Assembly (NCBI GenBank): GCA_965216785.1
Contig: OZ244197.1
Span: 374,828 to 438,827, forward strand
Length of the DNA: 64,000 nucleotides
Direction: 5' to 3'
Source: Thermodesulfobacteriota bacterium
Lineage (GTDB): Bacteria > Desulfobacterota_D > UBA1144 > Nemesobacterales > UBA2774
Position 1 is the stretch's first letter; each line of letters opens with the position of its first letter. The notes beneath the pieces were generated by a model. That model was given only the letters and a program-made list of their open reading frames with translations, did not search any database and was not told the DNA's origin. Shown piece after piece: positions 5,378 through 61,366 of this stretch. The position numbers were made by a program, and so were the translations under genes.

Positions 5378-6442
5378 ATGATTTATGCAGAACTGGGATT
5401 TACGCTCTTAAAAATTGCCCTTCTTTTATTCGTAGTGCTTACGCTCGTAGCGTACCTGACGCTTGCGGAGAGACGCGTGAGCGCGTTTATACAGGACAGG
5501 CTGGGCCCGAACCGAGTGGGCCCGTTCGGCTTTCTGCAGCCGCTTGCAGACGGTATCAAATTTATATTTAAAGAAGATATAGTCCCGAAAGAGGCAAACA
5601 GACCTCTATTTATAGTGGCGCCCGCCTTTGCATTGGTTACAGCGCTTATAGCCCTTGCAGTAGTGCCGATCGGAAGGGGTTTTGAAACAGACGTATTCGG
5701 CCTGCTACAGGAGCCTCTGTTTGTGAAGCTTCAGATTGCGGACTTAAACGTAGGTGTGCTTTACGTGCTCGCTATCGGGTCTTTGAGTGTATATGGAGTT
5801 GTGCTCGGAGGCTGGGCGTCAAACAGTAAATACTCTTTTCTCGGAGGACTCAGGGGCGCGGCGCAAATGATAAGCTATGAGCTTGCTATGGGTATATCCA
5901 TACTGGGCGTTATTGCGTGGACAGGGTCACTCAGGCTTCAAGATATAATAGAAGCTCAGTCACATTACTGGTTTATATTCCCTCAGATACTTGGCGGCAT
6001 AGTATTCATAATAGCCGCGTTTGCGGAGACAAACAGGCTGCCGTTCGATATGCCCGAAGCAGAGCCCGAGATTGTGGCAGGCTATCACACGGAGTACAGC
6101 AGTATGAAATTTGCCATGTTCTTTATGGCAGAGTACACGCACATGATTGTGGTGTCGTGCCTCGTAGTGGCGCTCTTTTTCGGCGGGTGGTACCCGCTTC
6201 CCTGGGGAGGCTGGTTCGGAATAGATATAGATACGTACTGGTATCTGCCGCCGCTCGTATTCGTAGGAAAGGTGCTCGCGTTCCTGTTCTTTTTCATCTG
6301 GGTAAGGTTCACCCTGCCCCGCTTCCGCTATGATCAGGTGATGAACCTCGGTTGGAAAGTACTCTTCCCCATAGCCATACTGAACATCATCGTGATCAGT
6401 ATAGCCATCCTGGTGCTTCAGCACTATGGGTATCTTAGCTGA
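5378..6442 (+). CDS. nuoH: NADH-quinone oxidoreductase subunit H
   Basis: Polytopic membrane protein, 354 aa, 16 bp after nuoG; overall pattern fits NuoH/ND1 (YLTLAERRVSAFIQDRLGPNRVGPFG). Confidence 0.9.
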   Translation: MIYAELGFTLLKIALLLFVVLTLVAYLTLAERRVSAFIQDRLGPNRVGPFGFLQPLADGIKFIFKEDIVPKEANRPLFIVAPAFALVTALIALAVVPIGRGFETDVFGLLQEPLFVKLQIADLNVGVLYVLAIGSLSVYGVVLGGWASNSKYSFLGGLRGAAQMISYELAMGISILGVIAWTGSLRLQDIIEAQSHYWFIFPQILGGIVFIIAAFAETNRLPFDMPEAEPEIVAGYHTEYSSMKFAMFFMAEYTHMIVVSCLVVALFFGGWYPLPWGGWFGIDIDTYWYLPPLVFVGKVLAFLFFFIWVRFTLPRFRYDQVMNLGWKVLFPIAILNIIVISIAILVLQHYGYLS

Positions 6443-6488
6443 TTCTATCTTTTAAATATTGAATTAGGGTAAAACGAGAGCGGTTAAG

Positions 6489-6851
6489 CTAATCGTCCTT
6501 CTGAACCATCGTGATTTCGTCTTTTTTATTGGGCACGACGCACAGGAACTCAAAAGGCTCGTCGCTGAGCACTTCGTAAAAGTGGGGTACGCCCGCGGGG
6601 ATAAAAACGACGTCGTCTTTCTCGACTTCGAATACCTCATCTCCGATCCCGATTTTAGCTCTGCCGCTTAGCACATACTGTTCGTGCTCAACGGTATTGG
6701 TGTGAGCTGGTATGCCACCACCGGGCTCCATTACAAACCGCCTCATTGCGAAGTTAGGCGACTCGTCAGGGCCGATTAGCACCTGAGTATGGGTTAGCCT
6801 TCCAGCTTCGACTTTTTTCAGGCTTATATCGTTTATGTTTTTTACAGGCAT
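6489..6851 (-). CDS. cupin domain protein
   Basis: 120 aa; cupin-like His/Glu motif region (GGGIPAHTNTVEHEQYVLSG ... FIPAGVPH). Confidence 0.6.
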   Translation of the reverse strand: MPVKNINDISLKKVEAGRLTHTQVLIGPDESPNFAMRRFVMEPGGGIPAHTNTVEHEQYVLSGRAKIGIGDEVFEVEKDDVVFIPAGVPHFYEVLSDEPFEFLCVVPNKKDEITMVQKDD

Positions 6852-6863
6852 TAAAGTTTGAGT

Positions 6864-9338
<2,475 letters not shown>

Positions 9339-9518
9339 CTACCTCCGTGCAAATGCTGGGTGGGGAACTAATGGACTTGTATTATACCATGGCAGAGATA
9401 AAAAGTAAAATAAAATCAGGGGGTTTGATCACATTTCCGTCTCAAAATACTAGGCCGAAAAAGCTCATAAATTATAGGGTGTTACAGCGGGGTCGAAGCG
9501 GACCCGCAGCGCTCTTCT

Positions 9519-10073
9519 CTAAAGCTTGGGAGGCGTGATGCCGACCTGGTTCTGATACTTCCCTTTTTTATCGGCGTAAGAGACTTCACATAGCTCATCA
9601 GATTCGAAAAACAGCACCTGCGCTATACCCTCGTTTGCGTAAATTTTTGCCGGAAGAGGGGTAGTATTTGATATCTCCAAAGTCACAAAACCTTCCCATT
9701 CGGGCTCGAATGGAGTTACGTTTACGATTATACCGCACCTTGCGTAAGTGGACTTGCCTACACAAAGGGTTATGGTGCTTCTGGGAATCCTAAAGTACTC
9801 GACCGTTCTGGCCAGCGCGAAAGAATTAGGAGGAATCATGCATATGTCCGACTTGATCTCCACAAAGGATTTATCGTCAAAATCCTTGGGGTCGACAACC
9901 GAGTTGTGGACATTCGTGAATACCTTAAATTCATCGCTCACCCTGATGTCGTAACCGTATGCGGAAAGCCCGTAAGAAATGGATCCGTCTCTTACCTGCC
10001 CGTCTACAAAAGGCTCGATCATCTTGTGCTCTAATGCCATTTTTCTTATCCAGTGGTCGGGTCTTACTGACAT
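9519..10073 (-). CDS. dcd: dCTP deaminase
   Basis: 184 aa; dUTPase-fold Dcd-like sequence (SAYGYDIRV ... [16 protein letters not shown]). Confidence 0.85.
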
Positions 10074-10146
10074 ATCTCTTAGCTCCTTTAGGTTCTTATG
10101 CTATGAAATTTAGAGGCATAGTACCATAGATCGAAATTTTTCACAA

Positions 10147-11166
10147 TCACATAAACTGCTTTAAAAATCTGATATCGTTCTCAAAAAAGAGCCTGATATC
10201 GTTTATACCGAATTTAAGCATGGTAATCCGCTCAATACCCATTCCGAATGCAAACCCGCTGTATTTATCCGCGTCATAACCTACGCTCTTGTATACCTCC
10301 GGGTCTACCATTCCGCATCCTAGAATCTCAAGCCACCCGGTTTCCTTGCATACCCTGCAGCCCTGCCCTCCGCAAATTACGCACTCTATATCGACCTCCG
10401 CACTCGGCTCGGTAAAAGGGAAAAACGAGGGTCTGAACCGAACGCCCAAGTCTTCACCGAACACAAGCCTCAGAAACTCCGTTATTACCCCTTTAAGGTC
10501 ACCAAAAGTAACATTCTCGTCCACAAGAAGCCCTTCTATCTGATGAAACATGGGAGTGTGGGATACGTCGCTGTCGCAGCGATAGACTCTACCGGGGGCG
10601 ATTATTTTTACGGGCGGCTCCTGAGTCTCCATTACCCGTATCTGAACAGGAGAGGTATGGGTCCTCAGCACTACTTCGTCTGAGACGTAGAAGGTATCCT
10701 GCATATCGCGAGCCGGGTGATTCCGGGGGATATTCAGGGCCTCAAAATTATAGTAGTCACTCTCAACCTCGGGGCCTTCGGCAACCTGAAACCCCATCCG
10801 CTGAAATATATCTATTATTTCTTCCATTACCTGCGTTACAGGGTGAAGCGCCCCCGATGTCACACCCCTTCCGGGAAGTGTGACATCGATTTTCTCTTGC
10901 GACAGGGCTTGTTTCTTCTTTTCATTTCTCAGGCTTTCAAATTTACTATCGAATAAGCCCTCGATGACAACCTTTGTTTCGTTTACGAGCTTACCCATTT
11001 TAGGCCGCTCGCTGTCCGAAAGGTCCTTCATGCCTTTTAGGATTTCAGTAAGGACGCCCTTTCTGCCGACGTACTTAGCTTTAAGGTTTTGGAGCGTAGC
11101 TTCGTCCCCTACGCTTACAAGCGCGGCTTCTACCTCTTCTCGAAGTGCCTGAAGTTTTTCTTCCAT
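10147..11166 (-). CDS. pheS: phenylalanine--tRNA ligase alpha subunit
   Basis: 339 aa; class II aaRS motifs (FHQIEGLLVD, GFAFGMGIERITMLKFGI). Confidence 0.9.
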   Translation of the reverse strand: MEEKLQALREEVEAALVSVGDEATLQNLKAKYVGRKGVLTEILKGMKDLSDSERPKMGKLVNETKVVIEGLFDSKFESLRNEKKKQALSQEKIDVTLPGRGVTSGALHPVTQVMEEIIDIFQRMGFQVAEGPEVESDYYNFEALNIPRNHPARDMQDTFYVSDEVVLRTHTSPVQIRVMETQEPPVKIIAPGRVYRCDSDVSHTPMFHQIEGLLVDENVTFGDLKGVITEFLRLVFGEDLGVRFRPSFFPFTEPSAEVDIECVICGGQGCRVCKETGWLEILGCGMVDPEVYKSVGYDADKYSGFAFGMGIERITMLKFGINDIRLFFENDIRFLKQFM

Positions 11167-11168
11167 TC

Positions 11169-11675
11169 CTAATTCCTTACAACAGAGACTATTGTAATTA
11201 CTATCATTGCCATGCCTAACGCGCCTTTTGAAATGCTGCCTCCCATCCTTCCGAGAAACGCTCCCCAGCCTGATTTCATTGCGCTGTCTAGCTTTTTTTG
11301 TATAAATAAATCAACTAAAAACGCCCCCACGAAAGCCCCTATGAATGCGCCGATGACGGCTCCTATGCCCAAAAAAAACGGTAGACCCATGATGCCGCCG
11401 GCGATTCCGAAAACGATGGAGCCTATGATTGCTTTATTACTGGCTTTATATTTCTTAGCACCGTAAATACCCAGCACAAACTCAATTAGCTCTCCTAGAA
11501 GCGCAAGCGCTGTAAGCACGAATAACACGGTGACCGTAACGTCGTGAAATCCCCCGTACCACGCGAGTAATATTGAAGCGCCAAGGATTATATAATTACC
11601 CGGAAGTCCGAACACATGGGAAATTAAGCCGAAAAATGACACAAGTAAGAATAAGAAAAATATAACATAATCCAT
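11169..11675 (-). CDS. DUF456-like small membrane protein
   Basis: 168 aa, very hydrophobic and Gly-rich with GLPGNYIIL; 2 bp upstream of pheS on the same strand. Confidence 0.6.
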   Translation of the reverse strand: MDYVIFFLFLLVSFFGLISHVFGLPGNYIILGASILLAWYGGFHDVTVTVLFVLTALALLGELIEFVLGIYGAKKYKASNKAIIGSIVFGIAGGIMGLPFFLGIGAVIGAFIGAFVGAFLVDLFIQKKLDSAMKSGWGAFLGRMGGSISKGALGMAMIVITIVSVVRN

Positions 11676-11715
11676 GACTTGATTAAGGGCTTTGACGAGC
11701 CCGCCTAAATACTGC

Positions 11716-12633
11716 TCAAGCGGCCTTGCCCTTTCTATGTCTCCAGAAAATTACAAATGAGCTGGCCACGAATATTGACGAGTAAGTACCCACAATCGCT
11801 CCTACTATGAGTGTGAAGGTGAAATCATGAATGACCGAGCCTCCCAAAATGAATAACGGTATAAGTACTAAGAATACAGTAACACTCGTAAGAATCGTTC
11901 TGGAGAGAGTCTGATTTATACCTTCGTTGACAATTTCTCTGAAGCTTGTTTTTTCGCTCTTTTTGAGATTTTCCCTTATTCGGTCGAATATAACTATCGT
12001 GTCGTTCACAGAAAAACCGATCACTGTCAGAAGCGCCGCAACTATGGCGAGAGAGAACTCTTTATCCGTTATGGATATGGCACCGAGTGTAATAATAGTA
12101 TCGTGTATAAGGGCTATAACGGCTCCCATGGCAAAGCCAAATTCAAAACGGAACATTATATATATGAGTATCCCTACACAGCCAAGCAGAATCGATATTA
12201 TGGCTTTGGATATCAGCTCTGAGCCCACTCTGGGCCCGATGTAGTCGACCCTTAGTATGGAGCCCCCTTTAAACTCGGGATTATCCTTCATTATCCCTTC
12301 GAGTTTTGATTGAAAACCCTGTATCTCATCAAATTTCACAGTGTCGGGTGAGAAGCGGATTAAATACTCGTTATCACCCGTAAGCCCTAGCCTCTGAACA
12401 GCCTCAGGGGCGTAACCTGTGGATTCAAGGACTTTTTCTACCTGATTTAGCTGGAGGTCCTTCTGTAGCTTTATATGTATTTCTGTGCCGCCCGTAAACT
12501 CAACTCCCCAATTTGGGCCTTTATGATAGATAAGAGATAGGATGGATATTATGATTAGGGCGATAGATATAAAAGACGCCTTCTTCATCATACCCACAAA
12601 GTTGACATGGGTGCCGGGTTTAATTAATTCCAA
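11716..12633 (-). CDS. secF: protein translocase subunit SecF
   Basis: 305 aa; NWGVEFTGGT motif and SecDF-type TM bundle; directly downstream of secD. Confidence 0.9.
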   Translation of the reverse strand: MELIKPGTHVNFVGMMKKASFISIALIIISILSLIYHKGPNWGVEFTGGTEIHIKLQKDLQLNQVEKVLESTGYAPEAVQRLGLTGDNEYLIRFSPDTVKFDEIQGFQSKLEGIMKDNPEFKGGSILRVDYIGPRVGSELISKAIISILLGCVGILIYIMFRFEFGFAMGAVIALIHDTIITLGAISITDKEFSLAIVAALLTVIGFSVNDTIVIFDRIRENLKKSEKTSFREIVNEGINQTLSRTILTSVTVFLVLIPLFILGGSVIHDFTFTLIVGAIVGTYSSIFVASSFVIFWRHRKGKAA

Positions 12634-20858: not shown

Positions 20859-20952
20859 ATAGGATTCATCTCCCGCTTGATTGATCTATTAAAATTGCGT
20901 CGTTATACAATTTGACAAAGCACAAAACACCAATAACAATTGTACTAATCTC

Positions 20953-21414
20953 ATGAAACGCAAGATTAAAGCAACACTTAGTTTACTCGTATTATCACTG
21001 AGTTTAAATACCGCGGGCGCACTTCCACCCCCATGTACCCAGGATGAGCTACTAGACACATCGGAATACGCGGTAGAGGGCACAGTGATGAAAGTAGTGT
21101 GCTCAGAGCCCTACGATTCTAACGAGTGCAAGCCCGGGGCGGATGAAAAAGTTGTATTTGTGCCAGAGCTCTTTTCAAACTGCGCAGCCACGATACTGGT
21201 CTCTAAAAACCTAAAAGGCAGCCACGAAGCGGGAGAAAAAGTTGTGATTCCTTACGTGCGGGTCGCTAGGGCGTGCAGCGGAGGCACTCATATAATTCCG
21301 GGCAGTCCGACCAGCGAGCTTAGTATCGGGACCGTTATCAAATACTATAAATCCGAGCAGTGCAGGTACTGGAATATAGAGAAGATTGAGGAGCCTGCTT
21401 CTACACAGGAGTAA
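20953..21414 (+). CDS. hypothetical secreted Cys-containing protein
   Basis: 153 aa; N-terminal signal peptide (MKRKIKATLSLLVLSLSLNTAGA), 7 Cys; no recognisable family. Confidence 0.5.
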   Translation: MKRKIKATLSLLVLSLSLNTAGALPPPCTQDELLDTSEYAVEGTVMKVVCSEPYDSNECKPGADEKVVFVPELFSNCAATILVSKNLKGSHEAGEKVVIPYVRVARACSGGTHIIPGSPTSELSIGTVIKYYKSEQCRYWNIEKIEEPASTQE

Positions 21415-21488
21415 CTGCCGGGACCTCATACTATCAGCAGTCCGATCAATATTACCGATTTCATTTTTACTAAAATTTTAGAGAAATT

Positions 21489-23075
21489 ATGGCACTCACT
21501 CCGTTTGAACTTGAAATTTTCCAGAATATCCTAAGCTCTATCGCTGAAGAAATGGGGATGCTATTAATAAGAGCAGGGTTCTCCCCTAACATAAAAGAGC
21601 GGAGAGACCTGTCGTGCGCGATCTTTAATGCCAAGGGAGACATGATAGCGCAGGCCGCACATATACCCATACACCTGGGCTCAATGGGGTTTGCCGTAAA
21701 GGCTGTACTCGATGAGCCGGATATGCAGCCGGGGGACGTTTATATACTAAACGACCCGTTCAGAGGCGGTACACACCTGCCTGACGTAACCTGTATTAAG
21801 CCGGTATATTCGAAAGGGAAAATAGTATTTTTCGTAGCAAGCAGGGCACACCACGCCGACATCGGCGGCATCACACCGGGTTCGATGCCCGTATCTACCA
21901 CAGTTGAGGAAGAAGGAATCCTTATCCCACCTTCAAAGCTCTATACAAAAAACAGATTGAACAAAAAGCTGTTTAATAAGATCCTTAACAGCACGCGCGA
22001 CCCTGAGGAAAGAGAAGGTGATTTCAACGCGCAAGTAGGCGCTCTTGATCTGGGCGAGAAGAGGCTCACTGAGACTATAGGTAAATACTCGCTGAACCAC
22101 CTGCTTGAGGCAGGAGAGGAGCTTCTTAACTATAGCGAGAAGATAATGAAAGAAGTAATAAGGGCCATCCCGGACGGCGTTTACAGTTTTCAGGATGTCA
22201 TGGATGACGACGGCGCAGGGACCCGGAAAATTCCTTTAAAAGTAAAAATAACTATTAAGGGGAGCCGCGCAGAGGTGGATTTCAGAGAAAGCTCTCCGCC
22301 TGTGAAAGGTAACCTGAACGCCCCTTACAGCGTAACGACCGCAGCGACTATATATGTGTTTCAATGCCTTGCTCCAAAGGAGCTTCCTCTTAATTCGGGG
22401 CCTCTCAGGGTGGTGAAGATTATCGTTGACGATCAATCGATTTTAAACGCCAAGTTTCCAAGAGCGGTCGTGGGAGGAAACGTCGAAACCTCACAGCGAG
22501 TTGTAGATGTAGTGTTCGGCGCGCTTTCAAAAGCCGTGCCCGAGAAGGTGCCCGCGGCAAGCGCTGGATCTATGAGTAATATCGCATTTGGGGGAATTAA
22601 CCCAAGAACCGGACGGATATACGCTTATTATGAAACCATAGCTGGGGGAATGGGGGCGCGTCCAGGGATAGACGGGGTGAGCGCTGTTCAGACCCATATG
22701 ACAAACACACTTAACACGCCGGTTGAAGCGCTGGAGCGGGAGCTTCCGGTGATGATCCGCTCCTATACGATCAGGAGACGGAGCGGGGGCGCAGGAACGT
22801 ACAAAGGCGGAGACGCCATTGTGCGCGAGTTTAAATTCCTCAAAAAAGCTACCGTATCTCTTATAACCGAGAGAAGAAGATTCTCTCCCTACGGCTTAAC
22901 GGACGGAAAGCACGGGAAAAGAGGAAAGAACAGCTTAATTGTAAGAAATAAAGTAACGAAGCTGCCCCCAAAGTGCACATTTGAGGTGAAAAAAGGGGAT
23001 ATTATTAGTATTGAAACTCCCGGCGGCGGAGGCTGGGGCGGCAAACCCTGTAAAAACCCAGGACAAAGTGGATGA
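21489..23075 (+). CDS. hydantoinase B / 5-oxoprolinase family protein (no HyuA partner in window)
   Basis: 528 aa; N-terminal Hydantoinase_B-like pattern (ELEIFQNILSSIAEEMGMLLIRAGFSPNIKERRDLSCAIFNAKGDMIAQAAHIPIHLGSM). Confidence 0.8.
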   Translation: MALTPFELEIFQNILSSIAEEMGMLLIRAGFSPNIKERRDLSCAIFNAKGDMIAQAAHIPIHLGSMGFAVKAVLDEPDMQPGDVYILNDPFRGGTHLPDVTCIKPVYSKGKIVFFVASRAHHADIGGITPGSMPVSTTVEEEGILIPPSKLYTKNRLNKKLFNKILNSTRDPEEREGDFNAQVGALDLGEKRLTETIGKYSLNHLLEAGEELLNYSEKIMKEVIRAIPDGVYSFQDVMDDDGAGTRKIPLKVKITIKGSRAEVDFRESSPPVKGNLNAPYSVTTAATIYVFQCLAPKELPLNSGPLRVVKIIVDDQSILNAKFPRAVVGGNVETSQRVVDVVFGALSKAVPEKVPAASAGSMSNIAFGGINPRTGRIYAYYETIAGGMGARPGIDGVSAVQTHMTNTLNTPVEALERELPVMIRSYTIRRRSGGAGTYKGGDAIVREFKFLKKATVSLITERRRFSPYGLTDGKHGKRGKNSLIVRNKVTKLPPKCTFEVKKGDIISIETPGGGGWGGKPCKNPGQSG

Positions 23076-23084
23076 GCTCTACAT

Positions 23085-24311
23085 ATGAAACTGCCTAAAC
23101 TAAACCCGATAGAAGCATTTCCCGTTGAGTACGAGGGTCAGGAGCTGATATGCCTGAGAGACCCTTATAACGTAAGCGATAGGATACTTTACGTCTCCCC
23201 CGAGACATTATATATTCTGGGGATGTTTGACGGTGAGCATTCGGTAAGTGACGTGCAAAAAGAGATTCAGGACAAGTTCGGTCAGCACGTAAACTCAGAG
23301 GATATTGAAAGCTTAATAGATCAGATGGACGAAGCTCTATTTCTCGACAGTGAGAAGTTCGCTGATTTTAAGGCTAATCTCGAATCTAGTTTCAATGACT
23401 CGCCGATGCGCGCTCCGAACCATGCCGGGCTCTCCTACCCTGAAGATCCGGGTGAGCTAAGGGAATGGATTGCGGGTTTCTTAAATAGCGCGGAGGAATC
23501 AAAACCCTACGAAGGCGCTCAAAGAAATGTTAAAGGGATTATCTCACCCCATATCGATTTCTCAAGAGGCGGTAAATCCTATGCGCTGGCGTATAGAGAG
23601 CTTTTGCAGGACTCAGGCGCGGACACCTATATAATATTCGGCACGTCCCATTACGCAGAGGTTGATAACCCCTATATCTTGACCAGAAAATACTTTGATA
23701 CTCCCCTTGGGCGCGCGCAAACGGATACGGAGATAGTGGACAGAATTAGCGATAGCTGCCCCTGGGATGTATTTCAGGGAGAGATATCTCACAGAACCGA
23801 GCATTCGATCGAATTCCAGGTGGCGTTTCTGCAGTATTTTTTAAATAAAGAGACAGAATTTAAGATTGTCCCGATATTATGTAATTCATTCCATAGACTA
23901 ATTGAGCAAGGCAAGTCCCCGAATGAGGATGAAAGGATAGAGTTATTCCTTAGCCGCGTAAAAGATATCATAGCTGAGCTGGGAGACAGGTCGTTTATCA
24001 TCGCCGGGGCGGACATGGCGCATGTCGGGCCTAAGTTCGGAGACCCTGAAGAGGTAAATGACGGCACATTAAACATTATTAAGGAAAGAGATTTGCTTAG
24101 CCTAGAGCACTGTGAGAACCTGGACGCGGAAGGGTTTTACCGCTCTGTTGAACAAGAAAAAGACTGGAGGAAAATCTGCGGGCTCTCGCCTATCTATTCA
24201 CTCTTAAGCACAGCAGGCGTTAGCAGTGGAAAGATTCTTGACTATGATCAGGCGCTTGAGCCAGATACGGGGTCTGTGGTGAGCTTTGCGAGCGCAGCCT
24301 TTTATAAATAA
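23085..24311 (+). CDS. MEMO1-family protein (AmmeMemoRadiSam system protein B-like) with ~110-aa N-terminal extension
   Basis: 408 aa; MEMO-like core (GLSYPEDP, GIISPHIDFSRGG, HSIEFQVAFLQY, ADMAHVGPKFGD); starts 9 bp after the preceding gene. Confidence 0.7.
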   Translation: MKLPKLNPIEAFPVEYEGQELICLRDPYNVSDRILYVSPETLYILGMFDGEHSVSDVQKEIQDKFGQHVNSEDIESLIDQMDEALFLDSEKFADFKANLESSFNDSPMRAPNHAGLSYPEDPGELREWIAGFLNSAEESKPYEGAQRNVKGIISPHIDFSRGGKSYALAYRELLQDSGADTYIIFGTSHYAEVDNPYILTRKYFDTPLGRAQTDTEIVDRISDSCPWDVFQGEISHRTEHSIEFQVAFLQYFLNKETEFKIVPILCNSFHRLIEQGKSPNEDERIELFLSRVKDIIAELGDRSFIIAGADMAHVGPKFGDPEEVNDGTLNIIKERDLLSLEHCENLDAEGFYRSVEQEKDWRKICGLSPIYSLLSTAGVSSGKILDYDQALEPDTGSVVSFASAAFYK

Positions 24312-24315
24312 CACT

Positions 24316-25269
24316 ATGTCTAAAAAATTCACAATCCTGGACGCGCACGAAGATATAGCCTTTCACCTAAACTACTTTAAGAGAAGCTTTGTAAATCCCG
24401 AAGTGCCTAGCATGATTACACTCCCTGCTCTCAAAGAGGGAAACGTCAAGCTCGTATTCAACACGATTTTTGTCCCGCCCAAACAAAAGCCTGACAATAC
24501 GGTGAAATCCGCCATGGACCAGCTGGCTACTTACGAAAAACTATATAGTGATTACGAACAGGATGTATACCAAGTTTTGAGACCTGGTGATATTGAGAAT
24601 CTGGACGAAAATCCGAGGATAGGGTTTCTGACTCTCATGGAAGGTGCCGACCCGATTGAGGAGCCGGACAAGCTGGGGATGTTCTATGATAGGGGAGTCA
24701 GAGTCATCGGGCTTGCCTGGAATGATAAGAACAGCTACGCCTCCGGTAACGACACGGAGGACGGGCTTTCAGAAATGGGCAGCGAACTGATTATGCGAAT
24801 GAACGAGCTTGGAGTTACGCTCGATCTGTCGCACCTTAACCAAAGATGCTTCTGGGACTCGATAGAGCTTACAGAGCTAATACCGATAGCCACTCATTCC
24901 AATTCAAGAGCATTGACCGATCATCCGAGAAACTTAAATGACGATCAGCTAAGAGCTATATCAGAGCGCGGAGGTGTGGTAGGTATAGTTCTGTACAACC
25001 TTTTCCTTAAGACTACCGAAAAAGCACCGACACTGGAGGATGTTTACGCCCATGCCGACTACATGATAGGGGTTATGGGAGAGGACCATGTGGGGATAGG
25101 AAGCGATATGGACGGGGCGAGGATCGAGGATTTCCCCGAAGGGCTGAAATCCATAGACAAGCTTCAGAGTATCGCAGAGTTTTTTATAGCTAAGGGTTAT
25201 AGCGAGAGCCGAGTAAGAAAAATCATGAGCGAGAACTTTATGAGGGTAATGGAAAAAAACCTCAGATAA
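24316..25269 (+). CDS. membrane dipeptidase (peptidase family M19)
   Basis: Start moved to ATG 24316 (MSKKFTILDAHEDIAFHL), 4 bp after the MEMO-like stop; renal-dipeptidase-like motifs (DAHED, GLAWNDKNSYASG, LDLSHLN, IGSDMDG). Confidence 0.8.
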   Translation: MSKKFTILDAHEDIAFHLNYFKRSFVNPEVPSMITLPALKEGNVKLVFNTIFVPPKQKPDNTVKSAMDQLATYEKLYSDYEQDVYQVLRPGDIENLDENPRIGFLTLMEGADPIEEPDKLGMFYDRGVRVIGLAWNDKNSYASGNDTEDGLSEMGSELIMRMNELGVTLDLSHLNQRCFWDSIELTELIPIATHSNSRALTDHPRNLNDDQLRAISERGGVVGIVLYNLFLKTTEKAPTLEDVYAHADYMIGVMGEDHVGIGSDMDGARIEDFPEGLKSIDKLQSIAEFFIAKGYSESRVRKIMSENFMRVMEKNLR

Positions 25270-59539: not shown

Positions 59540-59650
59540 AGATTTCCGGACTGCCTGATCTCCAACCAAAGGTTTTAATTCATAGTACGTAAGAGATTTA
59601 ATTTTGATAAATTGTTTCGCCCTTTTGCAACTATAGGCTATGGTATTTCT

Positions 59651-61366
59651 ATGTCCGCATTAAAGCTACTACCACTGCTATTCTTGTTTTTCACTCTGCC
59701 TGTCTTAGCTCAGGTGGATCCGCCCTATGAGCCTAAGGCCAGATTCCATCCAGCGCTTGGCAAGCTGGGAATGGTGTCCTCACAGGAGAGATACGCAACC
59801 AGGGCAGGGCTCGAGGTGCTCAAAGAGGGCGGGAACGCTGTTGACGCCGCTGTGACTGTAGGCTTTGCGCTTGCCGTTACGCTCCCGAGAGCGGGAAACC
59901 TGGGAGGGGGCGGGTTTATGCTCGTGTATCTGGCGGAAAAAGACGAAGTAGTCGCTATAGACTACAGGGAAAAAGCTCCGCTTGCGGCTACACATGACAT
60001 GTTCCTAGATGAAAACGGGGAAGTAGACAAAGAGAAATCAAGAAATAGCATATTTTCAGCGGGCGTCCCCGGCACAGTAGCCGGTCTTACGCTCGCGCTT
60101 GAGAAGTACGGCACTATAACTCTCGAAAGAGCAATCCGGCCCGCTCTTGAGCTGGCTAGTCAGGGCTTTGCGGTAAACCAGGAGCTAAGAAGCTCGCTCC
60201 TTCAGGTAAAAGAGCGCATGAGAGAGTCCGACGCCGCTATGGGCACCTATTTTAAAAAAGGCGGAGAGCCTTACCAAGTCGGAGAAACTCTTAAGCAAGA
60301 AGAGCTGGCCTGGAGTCTTGAGGACATATCGAAAAACGGCTCAAAAGCATTTTACTCAGGAGATATAGCGGGGAAGATAGAGAGTTTCATGCAGTCAAGG
60401 GGAGGGCTTATTACAAAAGAGGATCTCTCCTCTTATAAGCCTGTAATCAGGACCCCGGTTAAAGGGACTTATAGAGGCTATGAAATCTACTCTATGCCGC
60501 CTCCTAGCTCCGGCGGAGTACACCTCATTCAGATACTCAACATGCTGGAGCTATTCCCCATGTCTCAGATGGGACACAACACAGCTTCCGCTATACATAC
60601 TATGGTTGAGGCAAAGAAGCTTGCCTATGCAGACCGCTCAGAGCACATGGGCGACCCGGACTTTGCTCCGGTTAATACAAACGGACTGATATCTAAAGCA
60701 TATGCGAAGGAGCTAAAGCTTAAAATTAATTCGGATAAAGCGAAACCAAGTAGTGAAATTCTTCCGGGCTTAATTCCAGCTGCGGAAGGGAACAATACAA
60801 CTCACTTCTCCGTTATAGATAAAGACGGAAACGCAGTCTCAAACACATATACGTTAAATTTCAGATACGGATCTAAAATTATGGTGCCCGGCACAGGCAT
60901 ACTGCTCAATAACGAAATGGATGATTTCTCATCCAAGCCCGGCGTGCCCAACGCCTACGGGCTCACGGGCGGAGACCTGAACGCAATAGAGCCTGGGAAA
61001 AGGATGCTGAGCTCAATGACCCCAACAATAGTGATGAAAGAGGGGAAACCATTCCTTATTACGGGAAGCCCGGGCGGGAGCAGAATCATTACCACAGTGC
61101 TTCAAATAATATTAAACGTGATCGATTTCAATATGAATATCGCAGAGGCTACAAACGCTGTAAGGGTCCACCACCAGTGGCTTCCGGACGTCCTCTATGC
61201 CGAGGAAGGGCTTAACGCAGATACCGTGAGACTGCTCGAGGAAATGGGGCATAGCGTGGAGCTTGGGAATACTATAGGGTGCACAGAAAGTATAATGAAA
61301 GAAGGGGATTTCCTTTACGGAGCGTCAGACCCGAGGAGACGGGACGGTTTGACGATGGGGTACTAA
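59651..61366 (+). CDS. ggt: gamma-glutamyltranspeptidase
   Basis: Start taken at ATG 59651 (MSALKLLPLLFLFFTLPVLAQV signal peptide; track used TTG 59612); GGT motifs (GGNAVDAAV, autoprocessing Thr in TTHFSVIDKDGNAVS, GSPGGSRI). Confidence 0.85.
   Translation: MSALKLLPLLFLFFTLPVLAQVDPPYEPKARFHPALGKLGMVSSQERYATRAGLEVLKEGGNAVDAAVTVGFALAVTLPRAGNLGGGGFMLVYLAEKDEVVAIDYREKAPLAATHDMFLDENGEVDKEKSRNSIFSAGVPGTVAGLTLALEKYGTITLERAIRPALELASQGFAVNQELRSSLLQVKERMRESDAAMGTYFKKGGEPYQVGETLKQEELAWSLEDISKNGSKAFYSGDIAGKIESFMQSRGGLITKEDLSSYKPVIRTPVKGTYRGYEIYSMPPPSSGGVHLIQILNMLELFPMSQMGHNTASAIHTMVEAKKLAYADRSEHMGDPDFAPVNTNGLISKAYAKELKLKINSDKAKPSSEILPGLIPAAEGNNTTHFSVIDKDGNAVSNTYTLNFRYGSKIMVPGTGILLNNEMDDFSSKPGVPNAYGLTGGDLNAIEPGKRMLSSMTPTIVMKEGKPFLITGSPGGSRIITTVLQIILNVIDFNMNIAEATNAVRVHHQWLPDVLYAEEGLNADTVRLLEEMGHSVELGNTIGCTESIMKEGDFLYGASDPRRRDGLTMGY

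Follow-up and report, generated by a model that had tools for sequence, protein, structure and literature searches.

The window analysed here, 64,000 nucleotides of contig OZ244197.1 from a Thermodesulfobacteriota bacterium, carries a compact cluster of three genes on the forward strand (positions 21489-25269). They encode a Hydantoinase_B/oxoprolinase family protein (HyuB), a MEMO-family protein whose N-terminal extension is predicted to fold like a recognition element (RRE) of peptides made on ribosomes and modified after translation (RiPPs), and an M19 (renal-dipeptidase family) metallopeptidase. We propose, with a probability of roughly 0.3, that the cluster is an operon confined to one uncultured lineage, Dadabacteria and close relatives, and that its three cytoplasmic metalloenzymes salvage small peptides or cyclic amides without ATP. 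No description of this gene composition was found in the searchable literature.

Organization of the cluster

The HyuB gene (21489-23075, 528 amino acids) is followed after 9 bp by the MEMO gene (23085-24311, 408 amino acids) and, after a further 4 bp, by the M19 gene (24316-25269, 317 amino acids counted from the ATG). Open reading frames (ORFs) and the sequence read across both junctions bear out the three co-oriented genes and the two short gaps given in a preliminary description of this DNA, and profile searches confirm its assignments to Hydantoinase_B, Memo and Peptidase_M19. A mechanical ORF list places the M19 start at a TTG at 24286; homologues align from residues 1-3 of the version beginning at the ATG at 24316, which is thus the right start. 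None of the three proteins has a signal peptide. Judged from their sequences, all three look functional, with conserved residues at each metal site.

Conservation within the Dadabacteria-like clade

We compared the window with 22 clade loci (L001-L016 and L084-L089), of which L085 is a short contig duplicating L084. In most of them HyuB, MEMO and M19 follow each other in that order with short gaps, mostly of 1-40 bp, and HyuB and M19, with or without MEMO, occur together in 20 of the 21 informative loci. Three distinct loci, represented by four records, have no MEMO (L084 with its duplicate L085, L086 and L088). In L086 and L088 the M19 gene directly follows HyuB, with a 4-bp overlap of the two in L086. 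In L084 a gene of the AhpD/CMD family, annotated as peroxidase-related, lies between HyuB and M19 (9633-10163), where the sister locus L087 has MEMO (9858-11138); this may be a displacement of MEMO by another redox-type protein. Conversely, L015 has MEMO and M19 one base apart in an unrelated context (9289-12015) without HyuB. M19 is therefore the sole trio gene found in every informative locus, and, as three loci have no MEMO and one has no HyuB, the persistent core consists of HyuB and M19.

The block is retained while its surroundings change. Its neighbors take at least five different forms on either side: upstream they include a gene for a 153-amino-acid protein, SucD, an epimerase, a Glyco_transf_9 glycosyltransferase and one further gene, and downstream a gene of the isocitrate/isopropylmalate dehydrogenase family, ClpS, a beta-lactamase/PBP4B-like gene, ArgC and others. 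L010, in yet another unrelated context, keeps all three genes, with an insertion of three genes behind HyuB. In a tree of HyuB proteins the MEMO-less loci are sisters of MEMO-containing ones, from which we infer that the trio is ancestral and that MEMO was lost at least twice. The trio thus appears to be ancestral to the Dadabacteria-like clade and to have been kept together while its flanks changed. This conserved adjacency argues for an operon, and we conclude that the three genes probably form one.

Several loci show further variation. A GxxExxY protein (TIGR04256) is encoded between MEMO and M19 in L012 (8269-8661). In L016 (5122-9263) two ORFs make up a split HyuB, and both MEMO and M19 are truncated, the result of either gene decay or assembly errors. 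Downstream of MEMO-M19 in L015, on the same strand, lie ArgC, a gene of the acyl-CoA ligase type and a small, putatively carrier-protein-like ORF.

An alternative that bears directly on these observations is that the three genes share no pathway: unrelated genes of housekeeping type would be co-transcribed in a compact genome, and their adjacency would be the inherited synteny of one lineage. The clade has indeed also conserved much of the nearby gene order (TGT, DapB, DUF4416, YicC and SucD), no other phylum sampled has the trio, single members have been lost while others stayed, and outside the clade the long MEMO protein is encoded by a stand-alone gene with varied neighbors. Yet both flanks have changed several times around a block that held together, including in the unrelated contexts of L010 and L015, and where MEMO was lost HyuB and M19 closed up as far as overlapping instead of drifting apart. 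A block that holds together despite flank turnover is better evidence of selected linkage than synteny alone. We consider the explanation by inherited synteny possible but rather unlikely. The preliminary description had made conservation of the adjacency in related genomes a point to check; it is conserved within the clade despite the changing flanks, and is not obligate even there, given the loci without MEMO or without HyuB.

No gene for the usual ATPase partner near HyuB

HyuB matches PF02538 with 687.8 bits (cut-off 26.8) over residues 5-517 of its 528 residues, and scores far under the NCBIfam equivalog cut-offs for caprolactamase and acetophenone carboxylase. Its best solved relatives are an N-methylhydantoinase (7hk5, 2e-83), with whose B half, in a fused A+B chain, it aligns over its full length, and a hydantoinase chain (6yra_B, 3e-61). 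A His/Asp/His triad is conserved: in the alignment with acetone carboxylase alpha, H96, D99 and H121 fall on H150, D153 and H175, which we take to be the Mn ligands in the published structure. HyuB therefore resembles the ATP-dependent HyuA/HyuB lactamases (N-methylhydantoinase, 5-oxoprolinase, caprolactamase and, more distantly, the acetone and acetophenone carboxylases) in its full-length Hydantoinase_B domain, its metal triad and its 46-49% identity to HyuB proteins of hyuAB pairs.

Public homologues of HyuB, which have about 520 amino acids and a Hydantoinase_B domain alone, group tightly in one clade at 62-100% identity. Searching again with the peripheral member P0399 as query recovered the same clade only, without its nearest relatives elsewhere. 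In the plasmid collection the nearest relatives are from Thermomicrobium roseum (48.6% identity) and haloarchaea (46-47%). In both relatives examined, T. roseum and Haloferax mediterranei (46.1%), a HyuA gene of 670-680 amino acids overlaps hyuB by 4 bp.

We used these two HyuA proteins as queries in six-frame tblastn searches of the window and 89 other loci (1.12 Mb). At E < 0.1 there was no match in the 64-kb window, in the 22 clade loci, with flanking DNA of up to 7-8 kb on each side, or in any of the 89 loci. A Pfam scan of every window ORF of at least 150 amino acids likewise found no Hydantoinase_A (PF01968-type), AMMECR1 or Radical_SAM domain. The earlier statement that the window holds no A subunit, and none of the AMMECR1 and radical SAM partners usually described with MEMO proteins, thus stands. 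A HyuA gene just outside the trio that would complete an ordinary hyuAB pair can be rejected for the entire window. The clade's HyuB differs from the known lactamases in this absence and in its linkage to M19 instead; the literature that we found on HyuA and HyuB describes ordinary pairs only.

The absence of HyuA could nevertheless reflect a split operon. In that case HyuB would be half of an ordinary ATP-dependent HyuAB enzyme of the 5-oxoprolinase or N-methylhydantoinase type, with HyuA encoded elsewhere, and would act with M19 and a periplasmic gamma-glutamyltransferase (GGT) in a salvage of glutathione or gamma-glutamyl peptides like that of the gamma-glutamyl cycle: GGT would release Cys-Gly, M19 would cleave it and HyuAB would open 5-oxoproline. 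The best solved relative of HyuB is a fused A+B enzyme and its closest outside relatives belong to hyuAB pairs, both as this explanation would have it. The GGT of animals works in one cycle with the M19 dipeptidase DPEP1 and a 5-oxoprolinase of the HyuAB type (OPLAH), and the window encodes members of all three enzyme families, including a bona fide GGT with a signal-peptide-like N-terminus (59612-61366, forward strand; TIGR00066, 611 bits against a cut-off of 358). However, this GGT lies 34 kb from the trio, the oxoprolinase-family protein of the window is without its ATPase half, and the tblastn searches found no HyuA there or around HyuB at the 22 loci, whereas subunits of obligate heteromers usually adjoin, as they do in the outgroups. 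The explanation also gives MEMO no role, and we regard it as unlikely.

The M19 dipeptidase

The M19 protein matches PF01244 with 289.7 bits, and its best solved relative is 3neh (8e-43). Compared with 3neh it keeps the family motifs H11/D13 (HxD), E109, H173, H194 and D264, residues that act as ligands in the family.

There is an independent precedent for joining M19 to genes of the hydantoinase superfamily. On plasmid pYJN5-3 of Paenarthrobacter sp. YJN-5, an operon of overlapping or abutting genes (L092, 557-4567) encodes a thiohydantoin-desulfurase-like DUF917 protein, a HyuA-like protein, an NTF2-family protein and M19, and is followed by genes for a regulator, an ABC transporter and an Asp/Glu-racemase-family protein. 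This locus shares with the trio a hydantoinase-superfamily gene and M19 in one tightly packed operon. It differs in having an A-type subunit and DUF917 rather than HyuB, in lacking MEMO, in belonging to another phylum and in an M19 that is about 30% identical.

A peptide-recognition fold fused to MEMO

The MEMO protein matches Memo (PF01875) with 152.9 bits over residues 111-404 and has the Memo fold as well. In its catalytic domain (23403-24311) the metal site is intact: across 40 diverse sequences H156, H189, D310 and H313 are invariant and C365 nearly so, and all five align with the matching motifs of human MEMO1. The full-length AlphaFold2 model, built from a 40-sequence alignment, has a predicted local distance difference test score (pLDDT) of 95.2 and a predicted template modeling score of 0.92. 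The bacterial protein differs from human MEMO1 in the fusion of an N-terminal domain of the peptide-recognition type and in its place in an operon with two hydrolases.

The N-terminal extension (residues 1-106, 23085-23402) was modeled alone with a pLDDT of 96.2 as three strands followed by helices, and the best Foldseek match is the heterocyclase TruD. Its N-terminus includes a conserved PKLR segment. The predicted winged-helix fold of three strands and three helices, with an (L/F)DG...(D/E)I motif, is shared with RiPP recognition elements such as PqqD, the B1 proteins of lasso peptides and the N-domains of cyanobactin heterocyclases. Weak sequence-level signals point in the same direction as the fold: the domain reaches 16 bits against TIGR03859 (PqqD), under the cut-off of 46, and PF05402 matches 8 of 39 family members with a best E-value of 3e-4. 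The model therefore gives good support to an RRE/PqqD-like domain, and this prediction for the extension that the preliminary description had singled out fits a peptide-related role. We refer to the protein as RRE-MEMO.

RRE-MEMO exceeds the permissive cut-off of TIGR04336 (AmmeMemoRadiSam system protein B, AmrB; 125.5 bits against 26), and public annotation labels its relatives accordingly. It nonetheless scores far under a canonical AmrB (287.9 bits), which is a single-domain protein of about 270 amino acids, whereas RRE-MEMO has 408 and the added RRE domain. Pfam scans of the window and the gene tables of the clade show neither AmrA (AMMECR1) nor AmrS (radical SAM). In L059 a canonical short AmrB and AmrA (5414-6909; TIGR04336, 287.9 bits; TIGR04335, 187 bits) are encoded directly upstream of an RRE-MEMO (7001-8230); because short and long proteins coexist there, the two Memo types are distinct paralogues. 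Given distinct paralogues and no AmrA or AmrS partner, the RRE-MEMO subfamily should not be filed as a component of AmmeMemoRadiSam. The comparison with that system in the preliminary description was therefore misleading, as the long proteins do not travel with AmrA or AmrS.

RRE-MEMO in other phyla

RRE-MEMO proteins are widespread. In a library of representatives at 50% identity, 1,050 score under 1e-30 with the MEMO query; the best 150 matches have 35-46% identity, are almost all about 380-445 amino acids long and nearly all align over essentially their full length. A scan of species-representative genomes yielded 80 loci from many phyla, including Dadabacteria/Thermodesulfobacteriota, Syntrophia-like bacteria, Rokubacteria/Methylomirabilota, Planctomycetota, Omnitrophota, Poribacteria, Acidobacteria, Verrucomicrobiota and Nitrospinota. 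The plasmid collection gave two short AmrB-type matches only.

In tblastn searches with the window proteins, HyuB and M19 were found beside MEMO in the Dadabacteria-like clade only. The 67 loci from other phyla have neither near RRE-MEMO within up to 7 kb on each side (some contigs are shorter), so that the adjacency does not extend beyond the lineage. A Pfam scan of 106 immediate neighbors of RRE-MEMO in those phyla revealed no common partner: Peptidase_M20 of the ArgE/DapE type occurs in 10 and Lon in 6, each in one lineage, UPF0047 in 4 and Radical_SAM in 2, and AMMECR1 is absent from the 25 families listed.

In the Rokubacteria lineage RRE-MEMO lies directly 3' of the ArgE/DapE-type M20 deacylase gene, in some cases with 4-bp overlaps (L027, L036, L047, L049, L056, L064, L068, L072, L074 and L080), and in a Syntrophia-like lineage it lies directly 3' of the gene for Lon protease (L019-L022, L024 and L046). 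Together with M19 in the Dadabacteria-like clade, this makes three lineages in which RRE-MEMO pairs tightly with a peptidase or deacylase, a pattern that is suggestive and amounts to only three independent events. A conserved 79-amino-acid helical protein is encoded 3' of MEMO on the opposite strand in seven of seven loci (L017, L019-L022, L025 and L046). After it most of these loci, and L024 as well, carry a gene for a conserved protein of about 230-260 amino acids, which from a Cys-containing motif we guess to be transglutaminase-like.

These pairings bear on the suggestion, raised in the preliminary description, of a module for processing modified peptides. In such a pathway of peptide or protein modification, RRE-MEMO would bind a specific peptide, which it would modify at its metal site, and the product would be tailored or trimmed by HyuB and M19. 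The modeling gives good support to the RRE fold, which is fused to a MEMO domain with an intact catalytic site, RRE-MEMO genes adjoin those for peptidases or deacylases in the three lineages, and Memo-like proteins are among newly seen RRE fusions described as "unprecedented in RiPPs", for which no function was proposed (PMC12710340, mSystems 2025). On the other hand, no precursor peptide gene was found in or beside the cluster, where gaps of 4-9 bp leave no room for a small ORF, and no RiPP-type cluster was found around the trio or among the 106 flanking genes in other phyla. N-domain residues such as R25, D26, D49 and G50 show little or no variation across phyla, unlike those of RREs that co-vary with private leader peptides, and the same winged-helix fold occurs in non-RiPP enzymes such as PKMT2 and MINA53. 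MEMO is moreover dispensable while HyuB-M19 persists. We consider modification directed by the RRE to be quite improbable as the function of the trio.

Flanking genes and transcription signals

The genes surrounding the cluster in the window are housekeeping genes (TGT, DapB, YicC, SucD, an epimerase and a gene of the isocitrate/isopropylmalate dehydrogenase family). Immediately upstream, on the same strand, is the gene for the 153-amino-acid protein (20953-21414), whose N-terminus resembles a signal peptide; it contains several Cys residues and matches nothing in Pfam or NCBIfam. Ten clade loci have a syntenic counterpart 5' of HyuB with 42-49% identity, and the other loci have none. The best promoter match upstream of the block, a sigma-70-like TTGACA-17-AACAAT on the forward strand (20912-20940; 10 of 12 positions, by consensus only), precedes this gene. 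In the 74-bp gap before HyuB (21415-21488) a consensus scan found no comparable match, and no terminator-like site was detected between the cluster genes. Such scans are weak evidence, and they allow a four-gene transcript; the 153-amino-acid gene may thus share a transcript with the trio from the promoter-like site, although its membership of the operon is doubtful. The preliminary description was right about a secreted Cys-containing protein at this position, but a tie to the trio is not supported, as the protein belongs to a different cell compartment. Its Sec-type signal peptide, its excessive size and its absence from half of the clade loci rule it out as a RiPP precursor.

Proposed function

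The simplest way to connect a subunit that opens cyclic amides with a dipeptidase is a two-step chemistry in which the ring is opened and the linear product then cleaved. HyuB, of the metal-bearing subunit type of the hydantoinase/oxoprolinase lactamases, would open a cyclic amide without activation by ATP; candidate substrates are a cyclic dipeptide or an N-terminally cyclized dipeptide. That the ATPase partner has been lost suggests a substrate whose hydrolysis needs no activation, unlike 5-oxoproline or caprolactam. M19 would then cleave the linear, dipeptide-like product to amino acids and so pull the HyuB step forward. RRE-MEMO would be a dispensable accessory, a peptide-binding metalloenzyme that acts on or delivers peptide substrates; the HyuB-M19 pair persists in related genomes that lack RRE-MEMO, hence the term accessory. 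The gene families, the metal-site residues, the RRE fold, the operon-like spacing, the patterns of conservation and loss and the lack of HyuA nearby are observations. We infer the substrates, the independence of ATP, the order of the steps and whatever connection there may be with MEMO, physical or metabolic.

Several points weigh against this proposal. We know of no Hydantoinase_B family member that works without an ATPase partner, and the 3.1-Mb genome may possibly encode HyuA elsewhere. The substrate class would follow from family chemistry alone, and the role of MEMO is the part that the proposal explains least. Conservation was observed within one lineage with much shared synteny, so that some of the adjacency may be inherited, and the HyuB tree is a neighbor-joining tree that carries no support values.

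A stronger form of the proposal holds that the HyuB of Dadabacteria is the first ATPase-free hydrolase of the hydantoinase-B type that acts on cyclic dipeptides or amides and is coupled to a dipeptidase, and that RRE-MEMO is a widespread metalloenzyme with peptide-directed activity, acting alongside peptidases (M19, M20, Lon). We hold this to be improbable. All three genes belong to known families, and it is the orphan HyuB clade and the RRE-MEMO fusion that deserve experimental follow-up.

Implications

To our knowledge, Hydantoinase_B proteins are so far understood only as one half of enzymes that consist of two subunits and are driven by ATP. A conserved HyuB clade that sheds the ATPase gene and joins a dipeptidase would point to a different chemistry, possibly to poorly known enzymes that degrade cyclic dipeptides. 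The label "AmmeMemoRadiSam system protein B" that public databases give to the RRE-MEMO subfamily is probably misleading. Human MEMO1 has been studied in cell motility and metal biology, and its catalytic activity is, as far as we know, still disputed. The fusion of a bacterial MEMO to a peptide-recognition domain in many phyla suggests a peptide substrate and provides a simple test system. If RRE-MEMO is a peptide-directed metalloenzyme that works with peptidases, it would offer a tractable bacterial handle on the disputed catalysis of MEMO1.

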